A stretch of 64,000 nt of DNA from a virus: positions 59,916 to 123,915 of the IMG/VR virus record IMGVR_UViG_3300025117_000028, one strand, 5' to 3'. The notes beneath the pieces are model-generated. The model did no database searches and was not told the origin of the DNA. It was given only the letters and a program-made list of their open reading frames with translations. Shown here in pieces: positions 40,736 through 59,731 of the stretch (its first letter is position 1; the number at the start of each line of letters is the position of its first letter). The translations under genes and the position numbers were made by a program.

Positions 40736-41094
40736 AGTATCTCCGTGTTTATATTAAAAAGATTTTTTAATGTTTCGAAATCAAAAGGTTGTACATACCG
40801 TACATAATAGGTGTATATATCTTTAGAATCGCAACCAAGATCTCCACATTCAAGGCTTACAAGTTCAATGTAATCGATATTGTGATTGGGATGAGGTGTC
40901 GAAGACCAGAACCAACTCTCTGTAAATCCCCAAACTTTATCAAAAAACGCTTGTTGTAGCTCTTCACTTGTTGGAAGTCTCCAGTTGTCTTTTTCTAAGT
41001 CTTTGGCTTGAAACCAAGTCATTGGTTTTTGGGTTGGTCCCCAAATTAATCTTCTTTGGAAGTCAATTGTAAGGCCATTGATTACTTTAAACAT
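40732..41094 (-). CDS. DUF1566/Lcl-C (C-type lectin-like) protein, copy A
   Basis: ID...LIWG...MTW..A...WRLPTSEEL...FWSS...YVRYV. Confidence 0.8.
   Translation of the reverse strand: MFKVINGLTIDFQRRLIWGPTQKPMTWFQAKDLEKDNWRLPTSEELQQAFFDKVWGFTESWFWSSTPHPNHNIDYIELVSLECGDLGCDSKDIYTYYVRYVQPFDFETLKNLFNINTEIL
41004..41094 (-). repeat. 91-bp perfect direct repeat shared by Lcl copies A and G (second copy 59637-59727)
   Basis: Base-by-base identity of the 5' ends of the two genes. Confidence 0.9.
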
Positions 41095-41096
41095 AT

Positions 41097-41471
41097 TTAT
41101 TTGTCCTGATTATGATGTCTTCTTCTCTTATCGATAAGACCTGTCATTTCTTGTAAAATGCCAGAGACGGGGACATATCTTAATCCACTAATAATTTTTT
41201 CTAATTTACTTATATAAGAAGAAGAAGCATTATAATAATATACTTTACCTTTAAACTTTATATCTTTAATAGCTTGTGCAACTTGTATTAAACCTTTTAG
41301 TTTTTCATGTTTTATAAAACTAAGGAATATATATTTATAAGTATCCCCGTTTAGATATATTTCATCTAATATCCCTTCAACGGTTTTATAAGATTTTATC
41401 CAATCAAAAGGTAATACTTTTTTGTAGTTGTTAACCATTTCATCGTTATCATCATAAACTAAAATTTTCAT
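41097..41471 (-). CDS. Receiver-domain-like protein
   Basis: MKILVYDDN N-terminus with alternating beta/alpha pattern; no clear phospho-acceptor Asp. Confidence 0.4.
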   Translation of the reverse strand: MKILVYDDNDEMVNNYKKVLPFDWIKSYKTVEGILDEIYLNGDTYKYIFLSFIKHEKLKGLIQVAQAIKDIKFKGKVYYYNASSSYISKLEKIISGLRYVPVSGILQEMTGLIDKRRRHHNQDK

Positions 41472-41860
41472 AGTTGTTGTCCGTTAGAGTTTATACCATT
41501 TAATAAATAAAGAGTCATCTGCTCTGCAGGGTAGTCTTCTTCCTCTAAAAAAATATCTAATAATGTCATATTTGGAGAAAAATAATAAGAATTTTCAAGA
41601 ATACACATTTCGTCTATCTCTTTTTTTTCAGTATGACCTATTTCGAATGACTCTAGAGTCCCTATATAGTTTTTAGTATTTAATATATCTGTAATTTTTA
41701 TAAAATATTGTTCTACAAACTTTAGGTGTTGTATAAGATAAAGGAGAATCATCCCTTTTTGTGGTTCTAGATTATTAACCATTGGAAGGTCTGTTATAGA
41801 TATACAGTCTTTATCTTTTTTCCTTGATATCCTTAATGGATTTCTTTTAAAATAAATCAT
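41468..41860 (-). CDS. Hypothetical protein, tandem paralog 1 of 3
   Basis: MIYFKRNPLRI...LPMVNNL...GMILL. Confidence 0.6.
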   Translation of the reverse strand: MIYFKRNPLRISRKKDKDCISITDLPMVNNLEPQKGMILLYLIQHLKFVEQYFIKITDILNTKNYIGTLESFEIGHTEKKEIDEMCILENSYYFSPNMTLLDIFLEEEDYPAEQMTLYLLNGINSNGQQL

Positions 41861-42234
41861 AATTCTTCCTGTGATTCATTAAGTAGATAGACATTCACAT
41901 TTCTTAAACTTGCTATTCCACAAGAAAATATTTCTGTCATTGTCATATTTGAATTATATTGATAAAACATATGGCCAAGACACATTTTACTTACATCAGT
42001 ATGTCTTTCATGTCGTAGACAAGTTTCCCATGTTTCCATTCCACAGGTATATATTGTATGAATTTTAGTGATATATGTTACCCTTCTTACAGATGGGTCA
42101 ATATAATCAATTAAAAGCAACATACCTGTCATAAGTTTTAGATTATTAACAACAGGAAGAGTCGTTATAGGTATACAGTCTGCATTTATCTTTCTTTTGT
42201 ATATTCGTAACGGATTTCTTCTGAAATATATCAT
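41857..42234 (-). CDS. Hypothetical protein, tandem paralog 2 of 3
   Basis: MIYFRRNPLRI...LPVVNNL...GMLLL. Confidence 0.6.
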   Translation of the reverse strand: MIYFRRNPLRIYKRKINADCIPITTLPVVNNLKLMTGMLLLIDYIDPSVRRVTYITKIHTIYTCGMETWETCLRHERHTDVSKMCLGHMFYQYNSNMTMTEIFSCGIASLRNVNVYLLNESQEEL

Positions 42235-42596
42235 AGCTTTTCTATATTTGATAAAAATGGATATAAATAACAGGAGGAAGAAAAAAGAAGCCCTAAACTA
42301 TTTTTAGGATCATAACTACCACAAATATTAACTCCAAATTTTGTGTCTATTATAGACTGGAGAGAAATTTGGTTTCTATTTGTTTCCAAAAGTTGATACA
42401 TATACCTTACAGATATATCTGTCGTCTCTATAATTTTTATTAAATAATAAGTACGCTCTGTATTTTTACAGAAAAGAACCATATTAGCTTGAGGTTTAAT
42501 ATTTGTTATATCTGGTAAAAATCGAAATTCATATAAATCTCCACGATCTGAAGGAAATGTTGTTAAGAGAACTGGATCTTTCTTTATATATAACAT
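42231..42596 (-). CDS. Hypothetical protein, tandem paralog 3 of 3 (divergent)
   Basis: MLYIKKDPVLL...LPDITNI...NMVLF. Confidence 0.5.
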   Translation of the reverse strand: MLYIKKDPVLLTTFPSDRGDLYEFRFLPDITNIKPQANMVLFCKNTERTYYLIKIIETTDISVRYMYQLLETNRNQISLQSIIDTKFGVNICGSYDPKNSLGLLFSSSCYLYPFLSNIEKL

Positions 42597-44839
42597 TAGT
42601 TCCTTTTTAAACTACAGGTGCCTCCCGAGCAAGCTGCTGTGGCTAATTGATCCGTCGAATCTATGACCTCATAGTAAGTTAGTTTTGAAAAATCTATATT
42701 TTTAAGGACTGAAACACGCTTTTCGTATTCCTCTTTACTAATCCTTTCTTTTGGAGCTAAGCGATATATATTGTCGCCATCTTCTTTAGGAAAGAAAGAT
42801 AATCCGCCAACTATATCCCAATTTTCATAAACCCAAGCAGCAACCAACAACCATTCACCTTCTCCTACATATATGGTGCAACTTGGATTATGCTCACAGT
42901 AATTAATTTTAACCATCTTCCAATATTCTAATTGCTCAATAGCTGACAAAGTATTAGAAAATACTTCGGCTCCTTCAGGAGCCCTAACCGGGAATTCTAC
43001 TGACCATATCGTTTCGTCATATTGATAACATGGAACGTTTTGATCTTTTAATAGTTTGAGCATTGGATCGGTATTAGAAATTTGAATTCTATTAATATAG
43101 TAAGGTGCATAATGTGTGTGCATCCCTTCGGAAGCACCTACTACTTTAGATAAAGTGCCCGACGGTTTAATGGCTGTAATAGCAGAAGCAGGATTAATGT
43201 TAAATTGTTTCGCGTAGTAAGTATTAACTTCTATAGTTCTGTCGCGCAAAATCCTTAGAACTTCTGGGTTTCTTACCATAGGACAATCCCATTGCCCAGT
43301 GATAGAAACTCCTAGAAGTCTTTCTTCTTTACAATTTTGTTCCCATTCGGGTGACATATCTGGAAAATAAGTCAATGTAGATTGATATGTCCCAATTAAA
43401 GTAGCAACATCTATTTTATGCAATAAGTTTTCTAGAGTATCATCAAAACGAACTACAATCTCGCTTAAATTACATAAACTATTAGATTGCAATACTATTT
43501 CCCCACAAGGGTTTACCCCTAGACTATTAATTCTTTTACCCAATAATTTAATTCTTCTAGGAGGTAAAGTTTTTCTAAAGGAATAGCGGTTGATAATTCC
43601 CCTCTCTCCCGACCCACTTTTAACTAAGTTTAACCATTCTTCCATAAAGACAGCTTCGCTTGGCTTATCAAATACCGGGTAAGCTACAGAATTATTTGCC
43701 CACATTCTCTGTTTGTTTGTAGACAGCCAATCGCCTGCTTTAGCTAGCCGCATATGTATATCGTCTAGTTCAGAAATGGAAATTAAAGCACTTCTTCGTG
43801 TTGAACCCGCTTCGGTACATTGTCCAATTTTACAGAGAATATCATGTATGTCTATACTCTTTAATCTTGATCCTTGATTGGCCAAAATTCTATTGCGCGC
43901 AAAATTTACTAAGTCTATAAAAGGACGATCTCCAGAAGCACGACCACCCATTGTCTTTAAGGGAGTTCCTACTGGACGAATTTGAGATGTGTCTAAAACA
44001 AAATTTTGTCCATTATATAATAACTCTAATATATAATTAAAACTTTTGACCCAACCTTCTCTTGAATCTTCAACTATAATTACTTCTGGATCTACTCGCT
44101 TTTGATATTTAATTTTTGGAAGATCATGAATAATACTATTCTCAACGGAGAACCCTACTCCTACTCCAAGCATGAGTAAGTTCATGGCCTCTCCGAAGCG
44201 TTGTAGCTCATTGGGAGTGAGATAGGAACAGTTATATGCACAGATATTAGTTCTATCTATTGGGAGTCCGGCTAGCTGAAAATGCCTCATAGAGAACATT
44301 GCTTTTTGTTCTAGTACTGATTCTCTAATTGTGTTGTAAGTAGGCTCGTCTAAAAGACCTCCTAACTGACGTCTCATATAATTAACGCTACGATCTACAG
44401 TCTCTTCGTATACTTCTCTTCTATTATGTTGTGGAAGCCAACGAGCATATGTTCTTGCATAAACAAATTCTCGACGTAAGTCGTGATCAAAATATTGTTT
44501 ATTTCGAATTACTAAATCTCTATATTCTTGAGAAGGAGCATACTTTTTATTCTTTTTTCTTTCCTCTCTATAAAGAATAAAGTTCTTAGCAGTCTTGTGC
44601 ATTTGTAGAGTTAAGAATACATATTCTACAACATCTTGTAACTCTTCTACATGAGGAATGTATTCTAGGTTTTCACTTAATTTTAGTTCAAAAAAATGTG
44701 AAATTTTATTTAGAACATCGTTATATAATCCTTGTTCTTCAATAGCTAAGGCATTTTTTATTGCTTTTTCTAATTTTTCTTCATCGAAAGAGACTGTTGT
44801 CCCGTTTCTTTTAATGATTTGATTTAAAATTTTATTCAT
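42596..44839 (-). CDS. nrdJ: Class II (B12-dependent) ribonucleoside-triphosphate reductase with N-terminal ATP cone
   Basis: IIKRNG..FD..K ATP cone; YARTYAR, AYNCSY, NPCGEI, TAIKPSGT and C-terminal ACSGGTC; no small subunit nearby. Confidence 0.9.
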   Translation of the reverse strand: MNKILNQIIKRNGTTVSFDEEKLEKAIKNALAIEEQGLYNDVLNKISHFFELKLSENLEYIPHVEELQDVVEYVFLTLQMHKTAKNFILYREERKKNKKYAPSQEYRDLVIRNKQYFDHDLRREFVYARTYARWLPQHNRREVYEETVDRSVNYMRRQLGGLLDEPTYNTIRESVLEQKAMFSMRHFQLAGLPIDRTNICAYNCSYLTPNELQRFGEAMNLLMLGVGVGFSVENSIIHDLPKIKYQKRVDPEVIIVEDSREGWVKSFNYILELLYNGQNFVLDTSQIRPVGTPLKTMGGRASGDRPFIDLVNFARNRILANQGSRLKSIDIHDILCKIGQCTEAGSTRRSALISISELDDIHMRLAKAGDWLSTNKQRMWANNSVAYPVFDKPSEAVFMEEWLNLVKSGSGERGIINRYSFRKTLPPRRIKLLGKRINSLGVNPCGEIVLQSNSLCNLSEIVVRFDDTLENLLHKIDVATLIGTYQSTLTYFPDMSPEWEQNCKEERLLGVSITGQWDCPMVRNPEVLRILRDRTIEVNTYYAKQFNINPASAITAIKPSGTLSKVVGASEGMHTHYAPYYINRIQISNTDPMLKLLKDQNVPCYQYDETIWSVEFPVRAPEGAEVFSNTLSAIEQLEYWKMVKINYCEHNPSCTIYVGEGEWLLVAAWVYENWDIVGGLSFFPKEDGDNIYRLAPKERISKEEYEKRVSVLKNIDFSKLTYYEVIDSTDQLATAACSGGTCSLKRN

Positions 44840-44847
44840 AATTACTC

Positions 44848-45201
44848 TTATAAAATTTCTATTGTAAAATTTAATTCTTTTAAAATCAAAGAATCAAGTG
44901 GTTTTACATATCGTACATAGTAGGTAAAACATTCATCCTCGTAGTCGGTATAGCCACTATAGAAAAGTATAACCCGTGAATAACCAGTATAATTAAAGTA
45001 GGGAGATGACGACCAAAAGTAATGTGATATAAATCCAGGAACTTTATCTATACATGCTTGTTTTAATTCATCAATTGTTGGAAGTCTCCAACTGTCTTTT
45101 TCTAAGTCTTTGGCTTTATTCCAGCTTCTTGGTTCTTGGGTTAATCCCCAAACTAATTTATTCTTGAAATCGATTGTAAGACCATTGATTACTTTAAACA
45201 T
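44848..45201 (-). CDS. DUF1566/Lcl-C protein, copy B
   Basis: WRLPTIDEL...FWSSS...YVRYVKPLDSLILKELNF. Confidence 0.8.
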   Translation of the reverse strand: MFKVINGLTIDFKNKLVWGLTQEPRSWNKAKDLEKDSWRLPTIDELKQACIDKVPGFISHYFWSSSPYFNYTGYSRVILFYSGYTDYEDECFTYYVRYVKPLDSLILKELNFTIEIL

Positions 45202-45203
45202 AT

Positions 45204-45659
45204 TTATTTTCCTGTTGAACCAAACCCACCTTTACGTATTTCTTGTTTAATCTCCAAACCTGTTCTTACGATTGGGATCAAAATACCTTGCGCAATACGA
45301 TCAAATATATTCAAAAAAATTGTTTCTTCTGTTGGGTTATAAACTGGGATTAAGATTTCATCTCTATAATCACTATCTATAACACCACTTCCAACAAAGA
45401 CTAACCCTTGTTTAGCTATTGAACTACGCAAACGAACATCTAAAAACATATTAGATGACATTTTTTTGATAAACAATCCGGTTTGCAGCATGACTATTTC
45501 TTTAGGTTTGATTAACAATTGAGAAAGACATTCTTCCCATTCTATTGGGGCAAGAATAATATCAAAAGCTGCAGAACCTGTTGTCGCATAATGGGGCATT
45601 TTTTCTGTAGGATATAATCTATCTTCTGCTACTTTTAATTCAAATATATATTCTGTCAT
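45204..45659 (-). CDS. dut: dUTPase (trimeric)
   Basis: GSAAFD, RSSIA, GVIDSDYR, RIAQ and RKGGFGSTG motifs; start at 45659 by ATGA overlap. Confidence 0.93.
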   Translation of the reverse strand: MTEYIFELKVAEDRLYPTEKMPHYATTGSAAFDIILAPIEWEECLSQLLIKPKEIVMLQTGLFIKKMSSNMFLDVRLRSSIAKQGLVFVGSGVIDSDYRDEILIPVYNPTEETIFLNIFDRIAQGILIPIVRTGLEIKQEIRKGGFGSTGK

Positions 45660-46015
45660 AATACCTCTAAGTTTTTTATAACTCCAAGCACTTCTAAAAT
45701 TGAGGAGTTTAATGGTTGCACATAACGTGTAAGACAATAGTCATCTTTATAGGTGTAATAAGGTATGCCAAAACCGAAATTTACAGTCCATACATAGTCA
45801 GTGAAATTCTCATAAGGTGTCGAAGACCAGAACCAACTCTTTGTAAATCCAAGAACTTCGTCAATAAATGCTTGTTTTAATTCTTCACTTGTCGGAAGTC
45901 TCCAACCGTCTTTTTCTAAGACCTTGGCTTTATCCCAATTCATTGATCCTTGAACTGGTCCCCAAATTAATCTTCTATTAAAGTCAATTGTATAACCATT
46001 GATTTTTTTAAACAT
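45656..46015 (-). CDS. DUF1566/Lcl-C protein, copy C
   Basis: WRLPTSEEL...FWSSTP...VWTVNFGFG...RYVQP. Confidence 0.8.
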   Translation of the reverse strand: MFKKINGYTIDFNRRLIWGPVQGSMNWDKAKVLEKDGWRLPTSEELKQAFIDEVLGFTKSWFWSSTPYENFTDYVWTVNFGFGIPYYTYKDDYCLTRYVQPLNSSILEVLGVIKNLEVL

Positions 46016-46889
46016 TTAACAGGTTCCCTATTGTTAAATATATTTTCGAGAGTTCTTCTTTGATAGAAGTTTCCTCTCTCTTTATAGATAAATTTCCAAA
46101 ATACATTTCTAAACATTCTAATAGTAAATCTTTTATTTTAGATTCATTAGGACTATATTGGAGAGTACTTTCTAAGTATATTTTTTCAAGAGATTTTTCT
46201 TTATCTGCGAACCAATTTTCTAGATATTCTAAAGTCCATTCTCCTCTTCGTATAGCCTTAAGTTGTTCTCTATTTCTTTCTAAATCTATGTCATGCTCTG
46301 ATAAAATTTGTTCAACTTCATTTAATAGTCTTACTACATGATAACCAAACTTTATATCCCAACCATATTGACTGATAAGTTCAGCTCTATTTCCTTCAGG
46401 ATTTTTTGTTTTGATTTTATGTAGCCGAGAATAGGCATAACCCTTAAAGGTATGCCATGCTTTTTTAGATAAGAATAGTTTTCTATTCTCTCGCACTCTT
46501 TGTCCTACTGGTGTTATATGAATAATACATCTTTCAGGAACAAATAATGAATCTATCATATTAGGGTTACAATTCATACATAAATCAAAATAACGAACGA
46601 TATTATAGATATCAATATCATACTCCTTATCTTGATCCTTGATATGATGCTGTTGAAAATTTTGAAATCGCAGAGATTGTGTTCCGAACCCTTGTATTTC
46701 TCCAGCTTCATGAGGGAATATCATAGTACGAGAAGGCAGAGCAAAGCCATATATATCAATATCCGAAGTATTGCTGCTTGCTCCATATGCAGTTGAGCCC
46801 ATAATAACTTCATATTGAACAGACTTATCTATACCATATGGGCAATTAATAAGTTGTTTAGATTGTAATTTAGATATTAAACTTCCCAT
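46008..46889 (-). CDS. Nucleotidyltransferase (RlaP/YcgL-like, Pol-beta superfamily)
   Basis: GSTAYG....SDIDIYG, NPNMIDSL and YAYSRL motifs. Confidence 0.8.
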   Translation of the reverse strand: MGSLISKLQSKQLINCPYGIDKSVQYEVIMGSTAYGASSNTSDIDIYGFALPSRTMIFPHEAGEIQGFGTQSLRFQNFQQHHIKDQDKEYDIDIYNIVRYFDLCMNCNPNMIDSLFVPERCIIHITPVGQRVRENRKLFLSKKAWHTFKGYAYSRLHKIKTKNPEGNRAELISQYGWDIKFGYHVVRLLNEVEQILSEHDIDLERNREQLKAIRRGEWTLEYLENWFADKEKSLEKIYLESTLQYSPNESKIKDLLLECLEMYFGNLSIKREETSIKEELSKIYLTIGNLLNV

Positions 46890-47152
46890 ATATCCTTTTT
46901 TACTTCGAGTTTTTCTTTTTCGCTTAACTCTAATAGTAATTCTTTACTAATTTGATTTACCGGGTATATATATACTGTTCCTGAATAACATTCGATGGTT
47001 ATACACACTTATTCAGAATCTTTAATCGTTCCGCCTTTATCTATATACATTTGACGCAATGTATCTACAATAAGGTTAGTGAATTCTTCAAGATTTTCCT
47101 TTGATGTAATTTTTCCTTTAAATTTATCGATTTTCATTTTAATACCTTTTAC

Positions 47153-47776
47153 TTAAAGTAGTACTGCTGCTAACTTTTGGGTTTCTTTCAGGATTTTCTT
47201 TAGTGCGGTTTCTATGGTTTCTTCTTCTTCTCCGTGATACAATGCAAAATATTCCCAGCCGTCGTCTTTCTTAGCCATAGCAGAGAAGAGTTCAAAACTT
47301 AAAGATGCCTGGCACTTGATATAAGCTTTTAGTTCTTCGTACCCAGCTTGCCAATCCGGCTTGACGTCCGCAGGAAGTTTGAGGCGTTCTGCGTATCTCA
47401 GATACACATGAGCCGGTGGAAAGGTTTTTGTAACTAAAGGTTTTTTATGTAGACACTTCAGGGCATTGTCTATATAATAGTCTTTGCGCCATTTCTTATG
47501 GAGCGCCCTTTCGTAGGGTTCAAGGAGATGGTCTGGCTGCTGGTATGAGAAAAAGTCTCTGCGCGCGACTTTCACATGGCGACGCAGTAATCTTTTAAAG
47601 TTACTAAAAGAAATGTCTTGTACGCCTAAATCTCCTTCTGCTTGTACCATTTCTCCTTGATACCAATAATGCACCCCAGAGTTATCTAGGTAAAACTCAG
47701 ACAATAATTCTATGTGATTTTTTGCAACCAAAGGGTACATATTAGCAAAATAGAGTAGTTGGCGTTTTAGACTCAT
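47153..47776 (-). CDS. Hypothetical protein
   Basis: 207 aa; visibly more G+C than its neighbours. Confidence 0.6.
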   Translation of the reverse strand: MSLKRQLLYFANMYPLVAKNHIELLSEFYLDNSGVHYWYQGEMVQAEGDLGVQDISFSNFKRLLRRHVKVARRDFFSYQQPDHLLEPYERALHKKWRKDYYIDNALKCLHKKPLVTKTFPPAHVYLRYAERLKLPADVKPDWQAGYEELKAYIKCQASLSFELFSAMAKKDDGWEYFALYHGEEEETIETALKKILKETQKLAAVLL

Positions 47777-47794
47777 TTTAATTCCTTATTTTTA

Positions 47795-48097
47795 TTATGG
47801 TCGCACACAACAGATATAACGACTATTATATTTGATGTCACTTCCAATAAAATTGTGCCTTACATAATAATATTGTTTTGACATTCGACATCTAGAAGAT
47901 GACCATAAAGATTTATTTTTTATATACTTTTTAATTTCTTCTGGTCCATTCTCAAATAAATCAATAAGTTCTTCTTTAGAAGGGCATCTTCCTTTTTGTT
48001 CTTCACACTAGATTTGAGTTTTCCTCCATGACATTGACTTTTCAGAGATTGGTCCCCACTTTAATCCGGTCCTAGGATCTTTGATCCATTCATTCAT
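47795..48097 (-). pseudogene. DUF1566/Lcl-C gene with an in-frame amber (copy H), missed by the ORF track
   Basis: MNEWIKDPRTGLKWGPISEKSMSWRKTQI*CEEQKGRCPSKEEL...LWSSS...CVRP*; TAG at 48008-48010; ATG overlaps the UDG stop (ATGA). Confidence 0.75.
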
Positions 48098-48693
48098 TTT
48101 AAATTTTCTGTGTAAAAATTATAAAAAATCTGTGCATGTTCTTTTGCTAAGTCCATCATAGATGGGTTACGTAAAATGTATGCTGGATGCATTAACGGCA
48201 TTACCTTATAAGTTTTACCTTCTAATAAATATTTTTTAACCTTACCACAATATTCTTTTACCCAATTTTGGATAACAGTATCAGTTAATGCTTGATATGT
48301 TGGCTTACCAAAAGTAATAATAAAACGCGGTTTTAATAAATTTATCATATTGTTTAAATGTGTTTTACACACATCATATTCTTCTGGCCGTGGATCTCGA
48401 TCTTTAAATTGACCATTGACCATTGTTCTATGTAGGACTATATTTGTCCAAAATATATCTTTGTGAGGATCTATCCCAATAGATTCGAACATTTCATTTG
48501 CAAATTGACCACTTGGTCCTACGAATGGCAGACCTTGTTTTTGTTCTTGTTCTCCGGGTCCCATACCTATGACCATAATATCGGCCAGATAAGATCCCCG
48601 ATTAACAACTATCTTAGAATTATTAGTATTTAGAGAACAAAGGGTGCAATTTTTTTCTTTAAGTTCTGTGCAATATGTTTCAAGCTGGTTCAT
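48094..48693 (-). CDS. udg: Uracil-DNA glycosylase family 4
   Basis: CTLCSL, GPGEQE, PFVGPSG, RDP..E...C and HPAYILR motifs. Confidence 0.9.
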   Translation of the reverse strand: MNQLETYCTELKEKNCTLCSLNTNNSKIVVNRGSYLADIMVIGMGPGEQEQKQGLPFVGPSGQFANEMFESIGIDPHKDIFWTNIVLHRTMVNGQFKDRDPRPEEYDVCKTHLNNMINLLKPRFIITFGKPTYQALTDTVIQNWVKEYCGKVKKYLLEGKTYKVMPLMHPAYILRNPSMMDLAKEHAQIFYNFYTENLK

Positions 48694-49735
48694 TCTTTGT
48701 CTCTATTGTGGTTAACCCATAGGATCTATCTAGCAAAAGTTTTAATTCTTCTGGGGGCATTGTTGCTAAATATTCAGCCATTCCATTTCTGCCTTGTGCT
48801 ACTTTTGTCCCATTAAGATAGTACCAAGCACCAGAATTTTCTAAGATACCTTTAGAACGTAATAAATCTACAGTACCAGCCCAAGGACTAAATCCTTGTC
48901 CAAACAGTAAATCTACTTCTGCTGTTCTAAATGGAGTAAATACCTTATTCTTTGCTGTCTTAATTTTACAAGTAAAACCTATTGGTGTTTCTTTTGGACC
49001 CACCCAATCTCCTTTTCGTAATTCTAATCTAATAGTTGCATAGAATTTTAATGCGTTTCCGCCGGATACCACATCTGGAGAACCATAAGAAATTCCAATT
49101 TTCTGACGAAATTGGTTTATCCAAATAAAAGTACAATTAGCTTGTTGGGCTAATGGGTTAAGCTTGCGCAAAGCCTTAGACATCATACGAGCTTGAAGGC
49201 CCATTTGTTGATCTTCCATTGTCCCATCTAATTCAGCTTTAGGAATTAAAGTCGCAACAGAATCTATAATAATTAAGCCATAAGAACCAGTTCTACATAA
49301 AGTTTCTGCAATATCTAACGCTTGCTCACCGTAATCAGGTTGACTAATTGTAAGCCGATTCAAATCGACTTCTAATTTCTGTGCATAATCTAGTTCTAGT
49401 GCGTGCTCAGAATCTATATATGCAACTAATAACCCCTGTTTTTGTGCTTGCGCACAAGCATGTAATGCAAGACTACTTTTGCCTGTTGCTTCCCATCCAT
49501 ATAATTCTATATGCCTTCCTCTTGGTAATCCCCTTCCTTTAGACAAATTATAATCTAAGTTTGGAAGACCCATAGGTATCCAATCTTTAATAGTGCATAT
49601 ATCTAAATCTTCGTTGGAAGCAATACAAGCTAAGCCTTCTCCAAATTGTTTAGCAATTAACTTAAGAGATAACTCTATTTCTTTTTGCTTTTCATCGTCT
49701 AAATTTTCAACAACTTCTGTATCTTTTTTAACCAT
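48680..49735 (-). CDS. recA: Recombinase RecA
   Basis: GWEATGKS Walker A; YIDSEHALE, ISQPDYGEQAL, IIDSVA, QARMMSKALRK and GGNALKFYA motifs. Confidence 0.97.
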   Translation of the reverse strand: MVKKDTEVVENLDDEKQKEIELSLKLIAKQFGEGLACIASNEDLDICTIKDWIPMGLPNLDYNLSKGRGLPRGRHIELYGWEATGKSSLALHACAQAQKQGLLVAYIDSEHALELDYAQKLEVDLNRLTISQPDYGEQALDIAETLCRTGSYGLIIIDSVATLIPKAELDGTMEDQQMGLQARMMSKALRKLNPLAQQANCTFIWINQFRQKIGISYGSPDVVSGGNALKFYATIRLELRKGDWVGPKETPIGFTCKIKTAKNKVFTPFRTAEVDLLFGQGFSPWAGTVDLLRSKGILENSGAWYYLNGTKVAQGRNGMAEYLATMPPEELKLLLDRSYGLTTIETKNEPA

Positions 49736-49742
49736 ATAATCC

Positions 49743-50114
49743 TTATAATATATCTAAGATTGGAGCTTCTTTAATTAAAAGTATTCGACCTCCTCCGCTC
49801 TTAACACGATATACACGAGGAAGCCATTTGGAAAAGGGTATTTTGTCTCTATCTTGTCCTGGAGTACCTACAGCATAAGGAACATCAAGACACCAAAGGT
49901 ATCTTGTTCCAACATGAAGGAAAGGACAGAATCTAATATAATTATTGTATTCTGCTTCTTGTAATTCAAATATTTCTTTTAAGGTAGGTAATCTAAAGTC
50001 TGAATTAGACGCACAAATTCTATCTTTCCTTTCTTCTCCCCAAAAGGTTTGAATGGGCGGATCCCAAAATTCTGTAGCAATATATTTACCTGAGAAAAAG
50101 ATTAAGTTTTGCAT
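49743..50114 (-). CDS. Divergent DUF1566/Lcl-C-like protein
   Basis: FRLPTLKEI...YLWC...ILLIK. Confidence 0.5.
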   Translation of the reverse strand: MQNLIFFSGKYIATEFWDPPIQTFWGEERKDRICASNSDFRLPTLKEIFELQEAEYNNYIRFCPFLHVGTRYLWCLDVPYAVGTPGQDRDKIPFSKWLPRVYRVKSGGGRILLIKEAPILDIL

Positions 50115-50123
50115 TTTAAATCC

Positions 50124-50480
50124 TTATAGAATTTCTTTATAAAGATCTCGAACTAATAGAACCCTTCCATCTTTAACAGGGAAAGAATTACGGGTTGAAC
50201 CTGAATGAATATGATAAGCAACTTGACCTTGTCCCTCTTGGCACCAAACAAATCTTCCACCAAATTTATAAAAGCGTTTATCAGGGTATTGGTTTAGACA
50301 ATCGTTAAGTTCAAATACTTCAGTTAATGTTGGAAGTCGATAATCTGGATGTTGGCTTAATTTACACATTGCTGCATCATGTTCTACACAAGCAATTTCT
50401 CTGTATTCTATTTTATAATATTTAATAAATACTAACAGTCTATTAAGTATAAATAAATCTTCTCCTATACAGTGATTCAC
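50124..50480 (-). CDS. Divergent DUF1566/Lcl-C-like protein
   Basis: C..HPDYRLPTLTEV...FVWC...VAYH...VLLVR. Confidence 0.55.
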   Translation of the reverse strand: MNHCIGEDLFILNRLLVFIKYYKIEYREIACVEHDAAMCKLSQHPDYRLPTLTEVFELNDCLNQYPDKRFYKFGGRFVWCQEGQGQVAYHIHSGSTRNSFPVKDGRVLLVRDLYKEIL

Positions 50481-50500
50481 TATAATCTCCTTGCAAAAGT

Positions 50501-51154: not shown

Positions 51155-51167
51155 ATGAACTCCTAAT

Positions 51168-51868: not shown

Positions 51869-52193
51869 AATCTTCTTCTTGGTCAGCTAAATCTTTATCA
51901 TGTTCTTCACAAACATGAAGAATTTTGCCATCCGGAAATTCCCATTTTGCAATTGAAGCTGCTCCACATCTTACTTTATGAGTCGTTTCATTCCAAGGAA
52001 GAACAATCTCCACTTCACAACACGGTAAACTGGTCCTGACGGGTTTACAAGCGCAGTCATGTATTAACTCTCCGCATTTAAAACAAAAGTTTTCGGTATT
52101 GGTATAATATTTATCTTCTTTCTGTTTATGAACAATAGTTCCAGGAGCAGTAGGAATACGAGGTTCAGTGATTTTACGGATAGTCTTTCCCAT
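51858..52193 (-). CDS. Cys-rich Zn-binding protein
   Basis: CFKC..C.C, CCE..C..CEEH. Confidence 0.55.
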   Translation of the reverse strand: MGKTIRKITEPRIPTAPGTIVHKQKEDKYYTNTENFCFKCGELIHDCACKPVRTSLPCCEVEIVLPWNETTHKVRCGAASIAKWEFPDGKILHVCEEHDKDLADQEEDYEG

Positions 52194-52202
52194 TTTTCTC
52201 TC

Positions 52203-52766
52203 TCAGTATTGATTTAGTTTACGTTCTGTTCCATTTAAAATCGCGGCAATATTTAATGCTTTTTGCGCATATTCTAATTTTTTAAGTACATTAGACCAAA
52301 ATTCATATGCAATTTCTATTGCCATAGTTGTTGTCGTTAAAACTGCCACTTCGCTTTTAGCCAACTTTTCGCAATGCGCTCTATTAGTTAAAGCTTTACG
52401 AGAACCATCTTTTCTTTCTACTTGTCTCATAAAAGTTTTATATAATTGCCCTTGTTGGTTGTTTTCTGTAGAACGATTTGCATAAAGCATTGCCTGATAG
52501 CGACTTTTATAGTTTGAAGCTAATTGATATAGCTTAACTAAAGTAGCTACTGCCGTTCTACATTCAGAAATTGACATGTTTGGATCAAAGTGAATAGCAA
52601 AATCTTTTTCCCAATCAACTAATGTTTTTCCATCAATAGTAAAACTATTAAGGAAAATGTCAGTAAATTTAGACAACATAAATTTACCGATGTTAATTTC
52701 TTGGTCTAAATCATTTAATGGTTTTTCCGTATTGATAACTTCTTGTTCAGTGTGTTCTTCTGTCAT
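52203..52766 (-). CDS. Helical coiled-coil hypothetical protein
   Basis: 187 aa, all-alpha pattern. Confidence 0.55.
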   Translation of the reverse strand: MTEEHTEQEVINTEKPLNDLDQEINIGKFMLSKFTDIFLNSFTIDGKTLVDWEKDFAIHFDPNMSISECRTAVATLVKLYQLASNYKSRYQAMLYANRSTENNQQGQLYKTFMRQVERKDGSRKALTNRAHCEKLAKSEVAVLTTTTMAIEIAYEFWSNVLKKLEYAQKALNIAAILNGTERKLNQY

Positions 52767-53302
52767 TTTATTTCTTCTATTATAATTTTTCCGCCAAATG
52801 TTTTAACCATTTTATATAAAATGTCTAAGTCTTCCATAGTTAATTCATTGCTATACATACCTCTTTTTTTATTGTCTGGATATACTGCAATTGTATGCCC
52901 AGATTTTAGTGTTGTTGTAAACATTTTATTTGCCGAAGAACCCGTATGAGTTAAATTAATAATATCTTGGGGTTCTAACTCCAAATTAGGTTTTTCACAC
53001 ATTAACACTGGTTCAGGTATAGAACATGTTTGTCTCAAAAGATTTTCTAAGTTTTGAGTTGTAACATTTTTAGTCCATATAATAATTTCACGGTTCGGAA
53101 GAACGGATTTCCAAATTGTAATAGCTCGTTCTCCGTATAATATGCAATTATATGTATTGCTAAAATTTGTTAAAGTTGTTAATAGATCTTTAGTTTTAAT
53201 ATTAGTGATACTAACAGTATTATAATTATATTCTAAAGAATCTAATTGAGACTGTAATATCTGTAAATCATCAGCAGTTGAGTAAAGAATAATAGGAAGC
53301 AA
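52763..53302 (-). CDS. Hypothetical protein (TTG start)
   Basis: AGGAG upstream. Confidence 0.5.
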   Translation of the reverse strand: MLPIILYSTADDLQILQSQLDSLEYNYNTVSITNIKTKDLLTTLTNFSNTYNCILYGERAITIWKSVLPNREIIIWTKNVTTQNLENLLRQTCSIPEPVLMCEKPNLELEPQDIINLTHTGSSANKMFTTTLKSGHTIAVYPDNKKRGMYSNELTMEDLDILYKMVKTFGGKIIIEEIK

Positions 53303-53795
53303 TCAATTCTCCTTTCATTTCGTAATTATTATTATAAATATATACTTTAGGTAAATGAGCTATAATTTTTAGACTCTCGCTTTCGAAGTCTTTTGTTTTA
53401 CCCAATAGACAATCATATAAGGTTTCCGACTCGCCTAAAAATATATGTAATACTTTTTTGGCGGCCATTAATTCTCTCATCTCCATAAATGGGATAGCTG
53501 CTAAAATTGAAGCTAAAGTTCTATCAACAGTCAATAAAGTTTCATCTTCAATTAGTCTAGGAGGATTGGTGTAGATATTATCATTGATAATGCCTATAAT
53601 TTTCTTGGGTTTGTTTTCAATAATAGAAGCAGTAGTAATATAAATATCTTCTGAAGGATTAACTTCTTTTACTAAACTTAAACTTTCTAGTATGTCGTTA
53701 AAGTAATATATAGTGTCTACATGAGGATTCCATTGTTTGTCTTTTAAATTTTTTCTCATTGAGAGAACTGTTTTGTATAGTAATTTTTGATTCAT
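53271..53795 (-). CDS. Hypothetical protein
   Basis: 174 aa; ATGA overlap with copy D. Confidence 0.55.
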   Translation of the reverse strand: MNQKLLYKTVLSMRKNLKDKQWNPHVDTIYYFNDILESLSLVKEVNPSEDIYITTASIIENKPKKIIGIINDNIYTNPPRLIEDETLLTVDRTLASILAAIPFMEMRELMAAKKVLHIFLGESETLYDCLLGKTKDFESESLKIIAHLPKVYIYNNNYEMKGELIASYYSLLNC

Positions 53796-54145
53796 AAAAT
53801 TTCCATTGTAAAATTTAATTCTTTTAAAATCAAAGAATCAAATGGTCGTATATACCGTGCTGCAAGCCTGTAAGTTTTAAGACCTTCGACAACGTAACCG
53901 TTGTCGAAATCCACGTACCATGCGTGGTCGGCGTTGTCGATAAAGGACGATGACGACCAAAACCTATCCTCTGTAAATCCAGGCACTTTATCAAAAAACG
54001 CTTGTTTTAACTCATCTTTTACCGGAAGTCTCCAACTGTCTTTTTCTAAGTCTTTGGCTTGATTCCAAGTCATTAGTCCTTGGACTGGTCCCCAAATTAA
54101 TTTATTTTTAAAGTCGATTGTAAGGCCATTGATTTCTTTAAACAT
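53792..54145 (-). CDS. DUF1566/Lcl-C protein, copy D (DGR-type variable region)
   Basis: FWSSSSFIDNADHAWYVDFDNGYV; NNC-codon-rich segment. Confidence 0.85.
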   Translation of the reverse strand: MFKEINGLTIDFKNKLIWGPVQGLMTWNQAKDLEKDSWRLPVKDELKQAFFDKVPGFTEDRFWSSSSFIDNADHAWYVDFDNGYVVEGLKTYRLAARYIRPFDSLILKELNFTMEIL

Positions 54146-54152
54146 ATTTATC

Positions 54153-54470
54153 CTAAGGCATTAGATGTATCTTGTCTTGTAAAAACCATAAAGCTAAAGA
54201 TATAAAAATGCCAATATAAGCAGCGGCAACAACAGCGTGAATGCCTCCACCTAGACTAAAAAAAGTTAATATACTAAAAAGTGCGTCAGTAATAATATGA
54301 TGTCTGACCATAAATTTTTGAAGTCTTATTGGAAGTTTATTAAATAAAATTAAGAAAACAAAAAATATTATTCCTCCTAAAATTAAACCCGTTAAGGCTA
54401 TTCCGCCAATTATGAATGTCAAAATAAATAAAGTAATCAAACCTACGACAATTAAATTTTTACTTACCAT
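54153..54470 (-). CDS. Multi-TM membrane protein
   Basis: 3-4 hydrophobic helices. Confidence 0.65.
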   Translation of the reverse strand: MVSKNLIVVGLITLFILTFIIGGIALTGLILGGIIFFVFLILFNKLPIRLQKFMVRHHIITDALFSILTFFSLGGGIHAVVAAAYIGIFISLALWFLQDKIHLMP

Positions 54471-54976
54471 CCAAGAATCTTAGAAAGTGCAGTACGAAGC
54501 ATTATTTGACAAGATAACATTTCTTCAGGCGACATAAAAAATGTTCTAACATTCTCTTCTCCATTTTCTTTATGGCGAAGAGTAAATCCAAAAGATGTTC
54601 CATTAAAGAAAACACTTAGTTGATTAATAACAGATCCCATTGCTTCTGTTTGTGCATTAGGATCATGGATCAAAGCTATTGATTTTCCTTTTTCATCATT
54701 ATCTTGTAAAGCATAAGGCAATGTTTTTTCTAGCCAGTAAAGAATTTTTTCAATATCAATAAATCCTAACTTAAAACGTTGGATTTGTTCTAGTTGCATT
54801 TGATTATTTGCCATTGGGCAAATAGTTAACATTACAGAACCAGCCTGTAATTCTGTACATTTTTGTCCAGCAGAATTTGTCCATTCAGGTCCTTCTTTCG
54901 GTGAATATAACTCTAATTGAAGGCATGAAGTCTTCTTATATTTTTCAAATTTTGCAGGTCGAATAATTTTTTCCAT
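54464..54976 (-). CDS. Hypothetical protein, possibly Whirly/PC4-like ssDNA-binding
   Basis: Duplicated strands-then-helix pattern ending ...LRTALSKILGW; fold inferred by eye only. Confidence 0.35.
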   Translation of the reverse strand: MEKIIRPAKFEKYKKTSCLQLELYSPKEGPEWTNSAGQKCTELQAGSVMLTICPMANNQMQLEQIQRFKLGFIDIEKILYWLEKTLPYALQDNDEKGKSIALIHDPNAQTEAMGSVINQLSVFFNGTSFGFTLRHKENGEENVRTFFMSPEEMLSCQIMLRTALSKILGW

Positions 54977-54984
54977 AATAATCC

Positions 54985-55338
54985 TTATAAAATTTCCATT
55001 GTAAAATTTAATTCTTTTAAAATCAAAGAGTCAAGCGGCCGCACACATCTTACATAATAGTCGAGAGCTTTATTATCATAGTCGGCGAAGCCGTAGCCGA
55101 GATGCACGTACCATGCGTAGTTGGTATACTTAATGAGAGACAACGATGACCAGAACCTATCTTTTGCAAATCCAGGAACTTTATCTATAAATGCTTGTTT
55201 TAATTCATCTCTTGTTGGAAGTCTCCAACCGTCTTTTTCTAAGTTCATGGCTCTACTCCAGCTTCTTGGTTCTTGGGTTAATCCCCAAACTAATTTATTC
55301 TTGAAGTCAATTGTAAAGCCATTGATTTCTTTGAACAT
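54985..55338 (-). CDS. DUF1566/Lcl-C protein, copy E (DGR-type variable region)
   Basis: FWSSLSLIKYTNYAWYVHLGYGFADYDNKALDYYVRCVRP. Confidence 0.85.
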   Translation of the reverse strand: MFKEINGFTIDFKNKLVWGLTQEPRSWSRAMNLEKDGWRLPTRDELKQAFIDKVPGFAKDRFWSSLSLIKYTNYAWYVHLGYGFADYDNKALDYYVRCVRPLDSLILKELNFTMEIL

Positions 55339-55340
55339 AT

Positions 55341-55592
55341 TTAGTCTGTAGTTTGAAGTTTATCTATGAACTTCATTAAGTCTAAAGCTTCTACTAACAG
55401 TAGAGTAGCTAAGTTAGGATGAGAAAGATGATCGAGCATTAGTTGATCAACTTTATCTCCATATTGGATTGGAGATACTGCGTCTCCTAAGGCTGCTATG
55501 ACCTGAGCCAATACTCGTGCTTGATCATTGTCATTTAATGCTGATTGATTAAGAATATTTATTATTTGATTAGCTGTTTCAATTATAGTCAT
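55341..55592 (-). CDS. Hypothetical protein
   Basis: 83 aa, coupled. Confidence 0.5.
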   Translation of the reverse strand: MTIIETANQIINILNQSALNDNDQARVLAQVIAALGDAVSPIQYGDKVDQLMLDHLSHPNLATLLLVEALDLMKFIDKLQTTD

Positions 55593-55951
55593 AATAACCG
55601 TAGTCTAAAATTACATATTTCTTTGCCAAGATCTTCTAAAGAAGTGACAGTATTGAGGATATTAAATAGGTCGGAAAATCCATCGTCTGTATATAAGGGG
55701 GTAACTGTTTTAAGGAAATTAAGGATTTGTAACCTATTCATATGAAATAATCTAAACCAATTTCCTAATTCTAGTAAACTACAATCTTGCGAATAGGATA
55801 TTTCAGAGCGGGGATATTTAGTAGGATCAAGAAAAGCTCTTGTGTCTTCTATAAAGAATCCGCAAAGCTTTCCCTGATCCTCCCAAATTAGGATAGGCCA
55901 TAGATTTTTCTCAAATAGATCTTCGACTAATTGAGTAATATCCATGGCCAT
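55589..55951 (-). CDS. Hypothetical protein
   Basis: 120 aa, coupled. Confidence 0.5.
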   Translation of the reverse strand: MAMDITQLVEDLFEKNLWPILIWEDQGKLCGFFIEDTRAFLDPTKYPRSEISYSQDCSLLELGNWFRLFHMNRLQILNFLKTVTPLYTDDGFSDLFNILNTVTSLEDLGKEICNFRLRLL

Positions 55952-55954
55952 TTT

Positions 55955-56299
55955 TTACCACCTAGGTTTAGTTGAAGTAGTAGTTGCAGGAGTAGTATTC
56001 TCTTGCTGAGTATTAAACTTAGTTAAAATAAAAGTATTTAATGCCTCGCGTTCTTCTTTACCCTTAGGGAAAGCTCCTTCTTGGGTGAATTTGCCTGATT
56101 TATCCTTCATGATATTCCCTTCCTTGTCCCTTTCAACGGGCCAGGAAACCCAAGTCTTATCATCTTTCTTAAAGATTGCGAATTTTACTGTGATTAAATC
56201 ACAGAAAGTAATCATTCCTGCTCCAGCCAACACACCACTATTGATATTCCGTAGTGTAAAGTTTGTAACAGCACTTTCAATCTTTGTCTTTACGTCCAT
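55955..56299 (-). CDS. spoVG: SpoVG-like nucleic-acid-binding protein
   Basis: A.GMITF..ITV..FAIF...WVSWP..R...G.F...FP..KE.RE.L..FIL matches the SpoVG pattern; AGGAG RBS at the 56299 start. Confidence 0.6.
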   Translation of the reverse strand: MDVKTKIESAVTNFTLRNINSGVLAGAGMITFCDLITVKFAIFKKDDKTWVSWPVERDKEGNIMKDKSGKFTQEGAFPKGKEEREALNTFILTKFNTQQENTTPATTTSTKPRW

Positions 56300-56309
56300 A
56301 ATCTTTCTC

Positions 56310-57806
56310 CTAAATAATTTTACCATCTTTACATACTAATACTTTTTTCTCACCATTGATGGTAGAACCTAGTATAACTGATCTTTTCCAGATTTTTTCC
56401 ATATATCTCATGACTACTTCACATTCATCAAGTTTTAATTCAAGTCCAAATTCTTGAAAATCTTGATGGTTTTCATGAGCTAAAATTAAAGCTCCAGAAT
56501 CTGCAACTCCTTGTATTGTGATTCTGGGAACACCATAATCGTAGGACATAGCAGATTGTTCAAAGCAGAAATCTTCAATACTCCTATTCTTGAGAATAAC
56601 TTCCCCTGTTTCGTTATCTCTTTGCATTGTACATAAATGTAACTTGTACATAAGTTTGTCAGTTAAGTAAGTTCTATAAAAAGATGGATCGTCTTCGAAT
56701 TTAACTACTTCTAGAACTTTATCCCATCCTTTAATAGTTGCTTTAACAATGTTTCCATCTTCGTCTCGAAACCTTTGGTTGTCATCTTGTGGATAAGGAT
56801 ATAATTTCATATCTTTAGGAAGGCCATTGGTATAATAGTCGTCCCATCTTTCCCAGATGTCTCTAAGAATTTTATATCCTATATAATATGGGTTATGCCC
56901 CATACGTCCAATCATGTGTTCTTCATCCCATCCCGGATTGATGACAGCAGAATTTAATGCGGCAAAATCAACCATATCCATATCGTTTAAGTACTTTTCC
57001 ATAATTACGATATGAACAAGACTTGCAAATCCTTCATTAATAGTTTTAGTTAAGAATTGAGGATAGAAATAATAACTTTCTGCTCTCACTGTTAAGAGTA
57101 CATCTTTTTGCCATTCTTCTAGATCAGGTGCGTAATGCGCAAGAAACCATAATAAATCAGGTTCTTTTCTTGGAGGAAATGTTTCGTAATTCCAAGAGAC
57201 TTTACTTGTTACTTGAGGGCTTTCTTGTGTTAATAAGTCAATGATATCGGGTTCCGTATAACTAATTGTCCTTTCCTTCTTGGGATATAGTGGTCTATTC
57301 TCGCCTTTTTGGGTATATGTAAACCAATCCAAATGACGCTCAAGAGCAAATGCCATAGTGATAAAGTCTTCTACTTCTTTCTCTCCATACATTTCTTTAT
57401 AACGCTCTACGCGCAAACAAGAATCAGCAGCTCTTTGTACCATATCTTTAGGTACTTTAGATAATTGAATATTGTTTTTAAAAACATGTGCATGACCCAT
57501 GCAATGGGCAATAATTAACTTATTAGTAACTAAATTGTTACTCGCATGCATAAAGGCATAAGTGGGGTTATTATTAATAATGGTTTCTAACGCTACCATA
57601 CCATATTCGCTAGCGGCTTTTTGTTGTGTCCATGTAGGAGCATAGGAGAAATGACGCATACGTAGGGGTAGCCCATAGGTTGCGATAATCGCCATTAATT
57701 TTGGAGGAACTGTTTCCCAAATAATAGGATCCCAAGACAATCCCATTTCGTGTGCTATTTCACTAATGGCTTTTACTTCTTCGTCGATGTGTCCTTCAAC
57801 GAGCAT
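56310..57806 (-). CDS. spoVR: SpoVR/YcgB family protein
   Basis: YGLP.R..HFS, E.IIN..P.YA, LIIAHCMGHAHVFKNN, TKTINEGFAS and NPY..G motifs. Confidence 0.92.
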   Translation of the reverse strand: MLVEGHIDEEVKAISEIAHEMGLSWDPIIWETVPPKLMAIIATYGLPLRMRHFSYAPTWTQQKAASEYGMVALETIINNNPTYAFMHASNNLVTNKLIIAHCMGHAHVFKNNIQLSKVPKDMVQRAADSCLRVERYKEMYGEKEVEDFITMAFALERHLDWFTYTQKGENRPLYPKKERTISYTEPDIIDLLTQESPQVTSKVSWNYETFPPRKEPDLLWFLAHYAPDLEEWQKDVLLTVRAESYYFYPQFLTKTINEGFASLVHIVIMEKYLNDMDMVDFAALNSAVINPGWDEEHMIGRMGHNPYYIGYKILRDIWERWDDYYTNGLPKDMKLYPYPQDDNQRFRDEDGNIVKATIKGWDKVLEVVKFEDDPSFYRTYLTDKLMYKLHLCTMQRDNETGEVILKNRSIEDFCFEQSAMSYDYGVPRITIQGVADSGALILAHENHQDFQEFGLELKLDECEVVMRYMEKIWKRSVILGSTINGEKKVLVCKDGKII

Positions 57807-57807
57807 C

Positions 57808-59010
57808 TTATTTCTCCTTTTTCGTTGTCCCAAAGAAGAACTGTAAGGTTTTATCTACATCTTCCTTGCCATTAATTAAAATAGCCTGGAATTTTTCATC
57901 AGTAATTTTGTTTCTAAGTAAGGAATATAATTCAGACCCTGAATTTGAGCTTACTTCCCATTGAAGTCCATAATTTCCCCATCCTAGATGTGGGTTTATC
58001 TCTCCATAACCAATCATAGAACATTTAGTTAATAACTTATCCACAAGTTTAACGTATAAGCGGTTATCATCGTCTCCCCAATTTCCACCGTCAGTTAAAT
58101 GTACTATATAATTATTACATTTTGAAGGAGGGTGATGTTTGTCTATATGTTCGTCGGCTAATTTCAAAGCACTAGAACAAATAGTTCCTCCTCCCCAAGA
58201 TACTTCAAAGAATTTCTTTTCTTCCTCAAACCAAGCTTGAGTATCGTGCGCAATAAAATATATATCTACTTTTTTATAATTATATTTGAGGAATTGGACT
58301 ATCCAGAAAAAGATCATTTTTGCAACGACACGAATTTCTTCAGTCATAGAACCACTGACATCCATTAATAAATAGACAGCTGCATGAGTAGTATATTGAG
58401 GAATTTCTTCATAAGAAATTTTTACTAAATCTTCTTGTTTAAAATCTCCTACATATGCCTTTCCTGTCTCTGCTGCATTACGAATGATATTTCTTAAAAT
58501 AGTTTCTTCAATATCAGCGTTTGATATTGTATCAGTTGGCCTATAGGTGTTGTACTTTGTTTCAATAGACTCTACTGTCCTTTGCTCTTTTTCTCGTAAA
58601 TTAGGAAGCCCTAACTGTCGAATCATTTCTTCGATAATGTCTTGTAAGTCAATCTCTACAGTATAAGTTGGATCTCCATGTTCATTGCCTGCTTGTGGAC
58701 CTTGTCCTTGACTAAAGGGGTCTCCAGGTTTAAGGACATCTCCTTCTTCTCCTAAAGCTTCTCCACTCGTATCAGAATAATCTGGTTGTGGTGTATCTTT
58801 GTTGGTACCCCAAATAAAACGCCTTTGTTTAATAGTCGGGATACGTACTTTAACTTTTTTGCCAGCACTATCAGATGTAATAATATCTTCAGAGTTAATA
58901 ATATCTTTCGCGCCGGATTTAATCGCTTCTTTTACACGTTCGGTATGTTTTCGCTCTTCCATATCAGTCTGGTTATTTAAATCCCAGATGTCATAGATGC
59001 TATCGCTCAT
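57808..59010 (-). CDS. yeaH: YeaH/YhbH (DUF444) vWA-domain protein
   Basis: LGLPNL.EK, LMDVSGSM, GGTICSSAL, HLTDGGNW.DDN motifs. Confidence 0.92.
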   Translation of the reverse strand: MSDSIYDIWDLNNQTDMEERKHTERVKEAIKSGAKDIINSEDIITSDSAGKKVKVRIPTIKQRRFIWGTNKDTPQPDYSDTSGEALGEEGDVLKPGDPFSQGQGPQAGNEHGDPTYTVEIDLQDIIEEMIRQLGLPNLREKEQRTVESIETKYNTYRPTDTISNADIEETILRNIIRNAAETGKAYVGDFKQEDLVKISYEEIPQYTTHAAVYLLMDVSGSMTEEIRVVAKMIFFWIVQFLKYNYKKVDIYFIAHDTQAWFEEEKKFFEVSWGGGTICSSALKLADEHIDKHHPPSKCNNYIVHLTDGGNWGDDDNRLYVKLVDKLLTKCSMIGYGEINPHLGWGNYGLQWEVSSNSGSELYSLLRNKITDEKFQAILINGKEDVDKTLQFFFGTTKKEK

Positions 59011-59375
59011 AGTTCCTCACGATTAAACCCAAGTTCTAACAGTGTGTAAGAATCGAATGGTCGTATATAACATACAAAAAGAGGTCTCTCTTTTTCTTCG
59101 TTATAAATATTACCGTCAGTTAATCTTATACACCAAGCATAGTCACCAAATTGATTACCTATGCTGTAAGCTGAATTTGTCCAGTAATAATCTTTGATAA
59201 ATCCTGGAGCTTCAAGTTCCCATATTCGTTTTAGTTGTTTAGCTGTTGGTAATGTCCATTCATATTGTTCTTGTCTTAAGGCTGTCCACCAACTCATTTT
59301 AATAGACTCTAATTTCCAAATTTGTTTTCTTTCGGTGTCGATTACGAAATTTTCAATTTGTTGGAATATACTCAT
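59007..59375 (-). CDS. DUF1566/Lcl-C protein, copy F (divergent scaffold)
   Basis: IDTERKQIW...MSW...WTLPT..QL...YYWT...AWCIRLTDG...VCYIRPFD. Confidence 0.75.
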   Translation of the reverse strand: MSIFQQIENFVIDTERKQIWKLESIKMSWWTALRQEQYEWTLPTAKQLKRIWELEAPGFIKDYYWTNSAYSIGNQFGDYAWCIRLTDGNIYNEEKERPLFVCYIRPFDSYTLLELGFNREEL

Positions 59376-59727
59376 AACTTTTCCATTATAATTCCAAATT
59401 CTTTTAAAATCAAAGAGTCAAGTGGTCTCACACGCCGCACGTAGAAGATGGAGGACCTATATCATAATAGGCATCGCCATAGAAGAGGGACACGCTCCAC
59501 ACATAGCTTTGAAGGTAGTAGGTGTAGAGAGATGAAGACCAGAAGCGAGCACTTTTAAATCCAGGAACTTTATCTATAAATGCTTGTCTTAACTCATCTT
59601 TTGTCGGCAATCTCCAACCGTCTTTTTCTAAGTTCATGGCTTGAAACCAAGTCATTGGTTTTTGGGTTGGTCCCCAAATTAATCTTCTTTGGAAGTCAAT
59701 TGTAAGGCCATTGATTACTTTAAACAT
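59372..59727 (-). pseudogene. DUF1566/Lcl-C gene, copy G, with a 1-nt deletion in the variable region
   Basis: The ORF ends early at 59428; the alternative frame gives FYVRRVRPLDSLILKEFGIIMEKL* ending at 59372 with an ATGA overlap on the next gene. Confidence 0.8.
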
Positions 59728-59731
59728 AAAG

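Follow-up and report, generated by a model that had tools for sequence, protein, structure and literature searches.

The Lcl lectin genes of the phage analyzed here are mosaics: segmental recombination among orphan lectin genes of the type targeted by diversity-generating retroelements (DGRs) is confirmed, with scaffolds that are ~80% alike and yet are joined by exact tracts of 24–91 nt with changing partners. The copies are likely to be dispersed lectin paralogs that became mosaic through ectopic homologous recombination or gene conversion, with the phage RecA as a plausible agent, and that carry a former DGR element as their 3' tail. This recombination is deduced from comparison of the genes, the events themselves not having been directly seen. 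The process that gives rise to the mosaicism is known, being ordinary gene conversion, and the setting represents a modest novelty: a complete phage genome that has 18 DGR-type lectin genes, lacks a DGR, and holds nearly all of its long repeats in this family. No report of such a phage gene family was found in the literature searched.

The phage record, from groundwater runs, comprises 190,284 nt, of which the window (the whole 64,000-nt stretch analyzed, to which positions refer unless given for the genome) is a part. The genome is circular and complete: contigs from other samples link the end of the record to its start, with one extra base. It contains 18 matches to Lcl_C (PF07603), all on the same strand, and the Lcl genes account for 4% of its DNA. 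Seven copies lie in the window, all on the minus strand: A (40732–41094; 120 aa; PF07603 E = 3e-6, below the cut-off), B (44848–45201; 117 aa; between dut and nrdJ), C (45656–46015; 119 aa), D (53792–54145; 117 aa), E (54985–55338; 117 aa), the divergent F (59007–59375; 122 aa; ~50% DNA identity), and G (59372–59727). They have a scaffold in common with the close copy J (genome 136,007–136,360, outside the window), which shares 41, 35, and 31 nt with G, D, and E, respectively, and was overlooked by the earlier, sequence-only reading of this DNA. A second Lcl scaffold family is located at genome 134–153 kb, also outside the window. The genes consist of a 183-nt scaffold, a variable region (VR) of 117–123 nt, and a tail of ~54 nt; in G, loss of 1 nt near 59460, a change that is fixed across contigs from independent runs, shifts the frame to a stop at 59428, which leaves an open reading frame of 99 aa (59428–59727) and the tail out of frame. 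The predicted structure of copy E is a C-type lectin domain (pLDDT 93.6) with fold matches that include Legionella Lcl (8q4e), and its tail is predicted to form a short helix (residues 104–109). The combination of an Lcl_C or C-type lectin domain with a C-terminal VR is that of a DGR target gene. The 123- and 118-aa genes at 49743–50480 were excluded from the family, having no Lcl_C hit; this pair and three genes at 41468–42596 (starting MxY) are small paralog sets without exact 24-nt tracts.

Among copies A, B, C, D, E, G, and J, 16 pairwise exact tracts of at least 24 nt were counted. The scaffold holds 11 of them and the tail four; one more lies at the VR edge, and the VR core has none. As the sequence-only reading had claimed, A and G are identical at their 5' ends over gene nt 1–91 (41004–41094 and 59637–59727, 18,633 nt apart; this and all following tracts are on the minus strand); beyond nt 91, 63 of the remaining 92 scaffold positions are identical. 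The block MNLEKDGWRLPT common to G and E is identical as protein, with an exact DNA tract of 31 nt (59611–59641 and 55222–55252), and the block of about 48 nt noted for B and E proved to be 49 nt (45120–45168 and 55257–55305), with seven private bases in common. Scaffold tracts also connect B with D (37 nt; 45080–45116 and 54024–54060) and G with J (41 nt; 59556–59596 in G), 31 nt of the latter also being present in E. A and C share 26 nt at the scaffold/VR edge (40894–40919 and 45815–45840), and C and E share 27 nt; these two tracts and the 37-nt B/D tract had been missed. The near-identical 3' tail of B, D, and E is exact over 43 nt in D/E (53794–53836 and 54987–55029), 37 nt in B/D (44861–44897 and 53805–53841), and 32 nt in B/E, and the tails of these three copies are 94–96% identical vs 51–60% for their VRs. 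G does possess DSLILKE as DNA (26 nt exact with E; 59397–59422 and 55010–55035), but past its stop, such that the frameshift leaves it untranslated. Copy F has no exact tract longer than 14 nt with any other copy. Genome-wide, 22 of the 23 exact repeats of at least 24 nt are in Lcl genes, and all are direct, with none inverted.

A single history is rejected by each of the approaches to recombination detection. PHI gave p = 0.0002 for the scaffold and p = 0.04–0.07 for the VR, with a weaker result at the codon level (p = 0.04–0.05), and a permutation run test on polymorphic sites identified A–G, B–D, B–E, D–J, and G–J as significant pairs after Bonferroni correction. In AU tests, the trees of nt 1–91, nt 92–183, and the tail were mutually rejected (p < 0.04), and nt 92–183 rejected the combined tree (p = 0.016), although these values are optimistic given seven short sequences and a breakpoint (nt 91) picked post hoc. 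Simulation under the best single tree (1000 alignments) gave no run of at least 91 nt (the longest never exceeded 72 nt) and no PHI ratio as low as the observed 0.66 (0/1000); the simulated probability of seven pairs with runs of at least 31 nt was 0.002. The second scaffold family outside the window is also mosaic (PHI p = 0.012). It is highly improbable that the apparent tracts reflect purifying selection and AT-rich codon bias acting on one tree; the scaffold is short and conserved, and the tail helix is preserved at the protein level in F, J, and relatives, as such selection would have it, but the tracts span columns that vary in other copies (34 in A/G, 23 in B/E), include privately shared bases, and were not reproduced by simulation with site-rate variation. 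Thus, no single tree without breakpoints accounts for the segments, and the description of each copy as a patchwork stands.

Creation of the identities by assembly collapse or chimerism, which the sequence-only reading had raised against its own claim, is the least credible explanation. It draws on five short phage contigs that are chimeric exactly at the tracts (L012, E to D; L015, C to A; L016, B to D; L017, C to E to G; and L018, at its end), with switches inside the longest tracts. Against this, stretches of 14–20 kb of the window are matched at 100% identity by long contigs from other samples and assemblers, and contigs of three runs, which break at the tracts, read into them from unique flanking sequence with no mismatch and at raised depth; independent assemblies therefore show the same arrangement. 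We rejected the chimeric contigs as signs of live recombination, as they are indistinguishable from assembly errors, and left them out as evidence because de Bruijn assemblers make multi-switch paths; no chimeric joints are listed in the four runs examined, and the five contigs are more likely to be assembly paths than molecules. With respect to age, zero differences in 91 nt limit divergence since the A/G event to ≤~3% (95%, by our own calculation) vs ~30% in the flanking scaffold, and strain variants that differ by ~0.1–0.4% retain the tracts they cover, so that the events predate the sampled population. The proposal of recent gene conversion or recombination is therefore supported as to conversion, whereas “recent” applies only relative to scaffold divergence; no close relative genome for dating the events was found, nor any relatives of the phage in viral contigs queried with copy E and with YeaH. 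Separately, around the region upstream of udg (47069–48184), two runs have minority alleles that make up 12–20% of the depth and show short skips as well as many differences.

The VRs of three Lcl copies outside the window (genome 143,641–146,394 and 152,424–152,804; L028), which are on different scaffolds, have 54–56% GC, and their mutual differences by codon position are 11/10/0 and 11/9/1; this bias to codon positions 1 and 2 is, judged from the sequences, a DGR signature. One of these fresh-VR copies (genome 145.3–145.6 kb) is frameshifted just 5' of its VR. Compared with the fresh VRs, those of B, C, D, and E show differences at 12–24 of the 39 third codon positions, for the most part from GC to AT, and D and E differ from each other by 18/13/16 across codon positions (copy J rows were left out of this comparison). 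Given this third-position drift from GC to AT, the window VRs appear to descend from DGR targets but not to have undergone late rewriting. The VRs would first have been written by a DGR without a counterpart in the phage genome. Strain variants have few, ordinary VR changes, and contigs of four runs, at up to 300x, have no VR variants at ≥5%.

Fresh VRs are also encoded elsewhere. A related phage (L063, L064; sample ERZ27256953) has Lcl genes of the same head-and-tail type whose VRs are fresh; one of these genes lies between recA and dut, and two of its genes with fresh VRs on the A–G scaffold differ by 7/10/1 across codon positions. Another phage-like contig (L040:1–663) has a neighboring pair of Lcl genes with DGR-like VRs, next to genes for primase, helicase, and polymerase. 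The MAG Deltaproteobacteria bacterium RIFOXYA12_FULL_61_11 (L043/L042, G001 contig 287; L048), apparently from the same aquifer, encodes Lcl genes that match the fresh phage VRs in their VR and VR end. Its VR differs from two fresh phage VRs by 12/12/1 and 6/11/1 across codon positions; at fixed columns the agreement is 87/87 for two phage VRs and 82/87 for the third, although the 87 columns were defined from two phage VRs together with the MAG VR, so that the codon-position split is the non-circular figure. The VR ends agree as well. No reverse transcriptase (RT) or template was found in the RIFOXYA12_FULL_61_11 assembly, and the VR pattern was absent from 60 relatives of the MAG. The MAG is a possible lead to the phage host.

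The tail looks like a relic of a DGR target-side element, to go by its motif and position. In DGRs, the IMH is located downstream of the VR and is distinct in sequence from its counterpart at the template (PMC5758913, PMC3240598), and for this reason we read the tail as an ancestral element of that kind. A tandem TT(T/G)G element, which is contained in the 37-nt B/D tail tract, follows the VR in 8 of 10 targets of Desulfobacteria-class DGRs vs none of three templates in a first set; the pattern having been defined post hoc, it was retested on new loci, where it occurred in 7 of 15 target VRs vs 0/3 templates, against a background of ~2%. In the phage, the element is present in B, D, E, and G, and absent from A, C, F, and J. 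The proposal that the tail serves as an IMH-like homing site thus stands as to likeness in sequence and position, but signs of present function are absent: in B and D the GC-rich IMH start is lost and the VRs have decayed, and the DGR machinery is missing, so that the tail is probably not an active homing site in the window copies. In the related phage, the tails of the two genes with fresh VRs differ at 12 of 39 nt, many of the differences being synonymous; since tails vary even beside fresh VRs, we attribute the near-identity of the B, D, and E tails to conversion over homing constraint. A mere ribosome-site signature was rejected, as it explains at most the last codons of the tail (E-x-L ends 8 of 102 other genes).

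The sequence-only reading had also suggested RT-mediated shuffling. In such a route, cDNA of one copy's transcript would be pasted into another copy, with the tail as homing site. The sole RT of the genome (61743–62528, minus strand) is encoded 2 kb from G, and the tail has an element resembling that of DGR targets, but this RT is retron-like with a YVDN site, and no link between it and the tracts was found. Searches of the complete circular genome for a DGR-class RT, the accessory gene Avd, and a template repeat with intact adenines found none, and the inferred template, searched in exact and degenerate form, matched this phage alone. Adenines are the bases altered by DGR copying (PMC5758913); in fresh VRs about half of them remain, vs 227 of 227 adenines unchanged in the 16 pairwise tracts. 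In addition, with homing from the tail the VR should be the first part to be copied, but the VR core is never shared. RT-mediated shuffling is therefore very unlikely, and its DGR form is rejected on account of the retron-like RT, the absent machinery, and the intact adenines; a faithful, non-DGR cDNA route for the tracts stays, strictly speaking, conceivable.

Ectopic homologous recombination between direct-repeat paralogs would instead occur during phage replication, probably by means of the phage RecA, the gene for which (48680–49735, minus strand; TIGR02012, 351.6 bits, cut-off 325.3) sits in the middle of the Lcl array; RecT, Erf, and Rad52 were not found in the phage genome. RecA mediation is plausible, and we infer which enzyme acts and in which direction sequence is transferred. 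As the direct repeats flank replication genes, a single crossover would remove or duplicate genes such as nrdJ, dut, and recA and should be purged, so that the survivors would mostly be short conversions or double crossovers. The tracts are shorter than the ~50%-divergent VRs, which would accordingly not be copied, and the outcome would be that scaffold and tail evolve in concert around VRs that stay unique. The tail, which would have begun as a DGR target-side element and is now presumably read as a short helix, would have been passed between B, D, E, and G through this recombination as well. A RecA-independent origin, by template switching at short identities or by chimeric birth from excised circles or pieces of a co-infecting relative inserted at new sites, is unlikely but of more weight than the RT route. 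Most tracts are short (24–49 nt), both ends of the copies fall at gene junctions with stop/start overlaps, in the manner of mobile units, and a gene of this type is found next to recA and dut in the related phage. Such an origin would yield an identical patchwork and is not cleanly separable; however, the multiple overlapping tracts in each gene are more in keeping with repeated exchange than with one birth event, and RecA is encoded in the genome. All tracts are in the scaffold, the tail, or the VR edge, and the ligand-binding VR core is untouched; since tracts avoid that core, shuffling alters the framework and not the binding region. The effect of the exchange is mainly homogenizing, and the case for it as a second layer of diversity, as had been suggested, is weak.

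Concerted evolution by ectopic gene conversion is established for dispersed multigene families such as rRNA operons and tuf genes. The phage Lcl genes are like these in having short identical tracts between diverged paralogs and conflicting segment trees, but differ in that each copy keeps a unique central segment. Segmental conversion also underlies antigenic variation at Neisseria pilS/pilE and Borrelia vls, where patchwork genes likewise arise from short tracts; there, silent cassettes supply one expression site and the variable segment is copied, whereas in the phage the conserved parts are copied among apparently expressed genes. For lambda Red, homeologous recombination between genes 22% diverged has been documented (Martinsohn et al., 2008; PMC2327257); both systems exchange ~20% diverged genes to give mosaics, although here the exchange is within one genome and would involve RecA, a Red-like recombinase not having been found. 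CLec2/DUF1566 (Lcl_C, PF07603) targets of the Legionella DGR class (Wu et al., 2018; PMC5758913) resemble the phage copies in C-type lectin fold, VR layout, codon-position signature (fresh copies), and the tandem element after the VR; in contrast, the phage has no TR, RT, or Avd of this kind, the window VRs have decayed, and the scaffolds recombine. The phage has 18 copies, vs a maximum of eight targets when adjacent or seven when remote in the DGR survey (PMC5758913). The nearest real DGRs, with RT, Avd, template, and targets, are those of Desulfobacterium N47 and Desulfobacteraceae (L033, L035); in the Desulfobacteria DGRs L033, L035, and L031, there is overlap between the template and the beginning of the RT reading frame.

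The phage thus offers a view of DGR targets after loss of the retroelement, in which frameworks are homogenized and binding regions freeze and drift to A+T. A further scenario, which we consider doubtful though somewhat less so than the RecA-independent origin, is that a host DGR rewrites the orphan targets of the phage in trans during infection, and that recombination spreads the 3' recognition element and scaffold, making new targets. We entertain it because the three fresh VRs outside the window match the MAG VR and the related phage has fresh VRs. If a host DGR does still write some copies, the phage would be borrowing the hypermutation system of its host, and the shared VR would also hint at the identity of that host.

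Two other features of the genome were observed. The window encodes a phage-borne prkA–yeaH–spoVR triad (56310–61798), in which prkA and yeaH are separated by copies G and F. At the junction of genome end and start (L054:2037–3528), one strain has different genes (a 289-aa protein, then a laminin G protein); these strain-variable genes come after a 175-aa gene that follows the capsid gene, and this variable site near the capsid gene is the point at which the record was broken.
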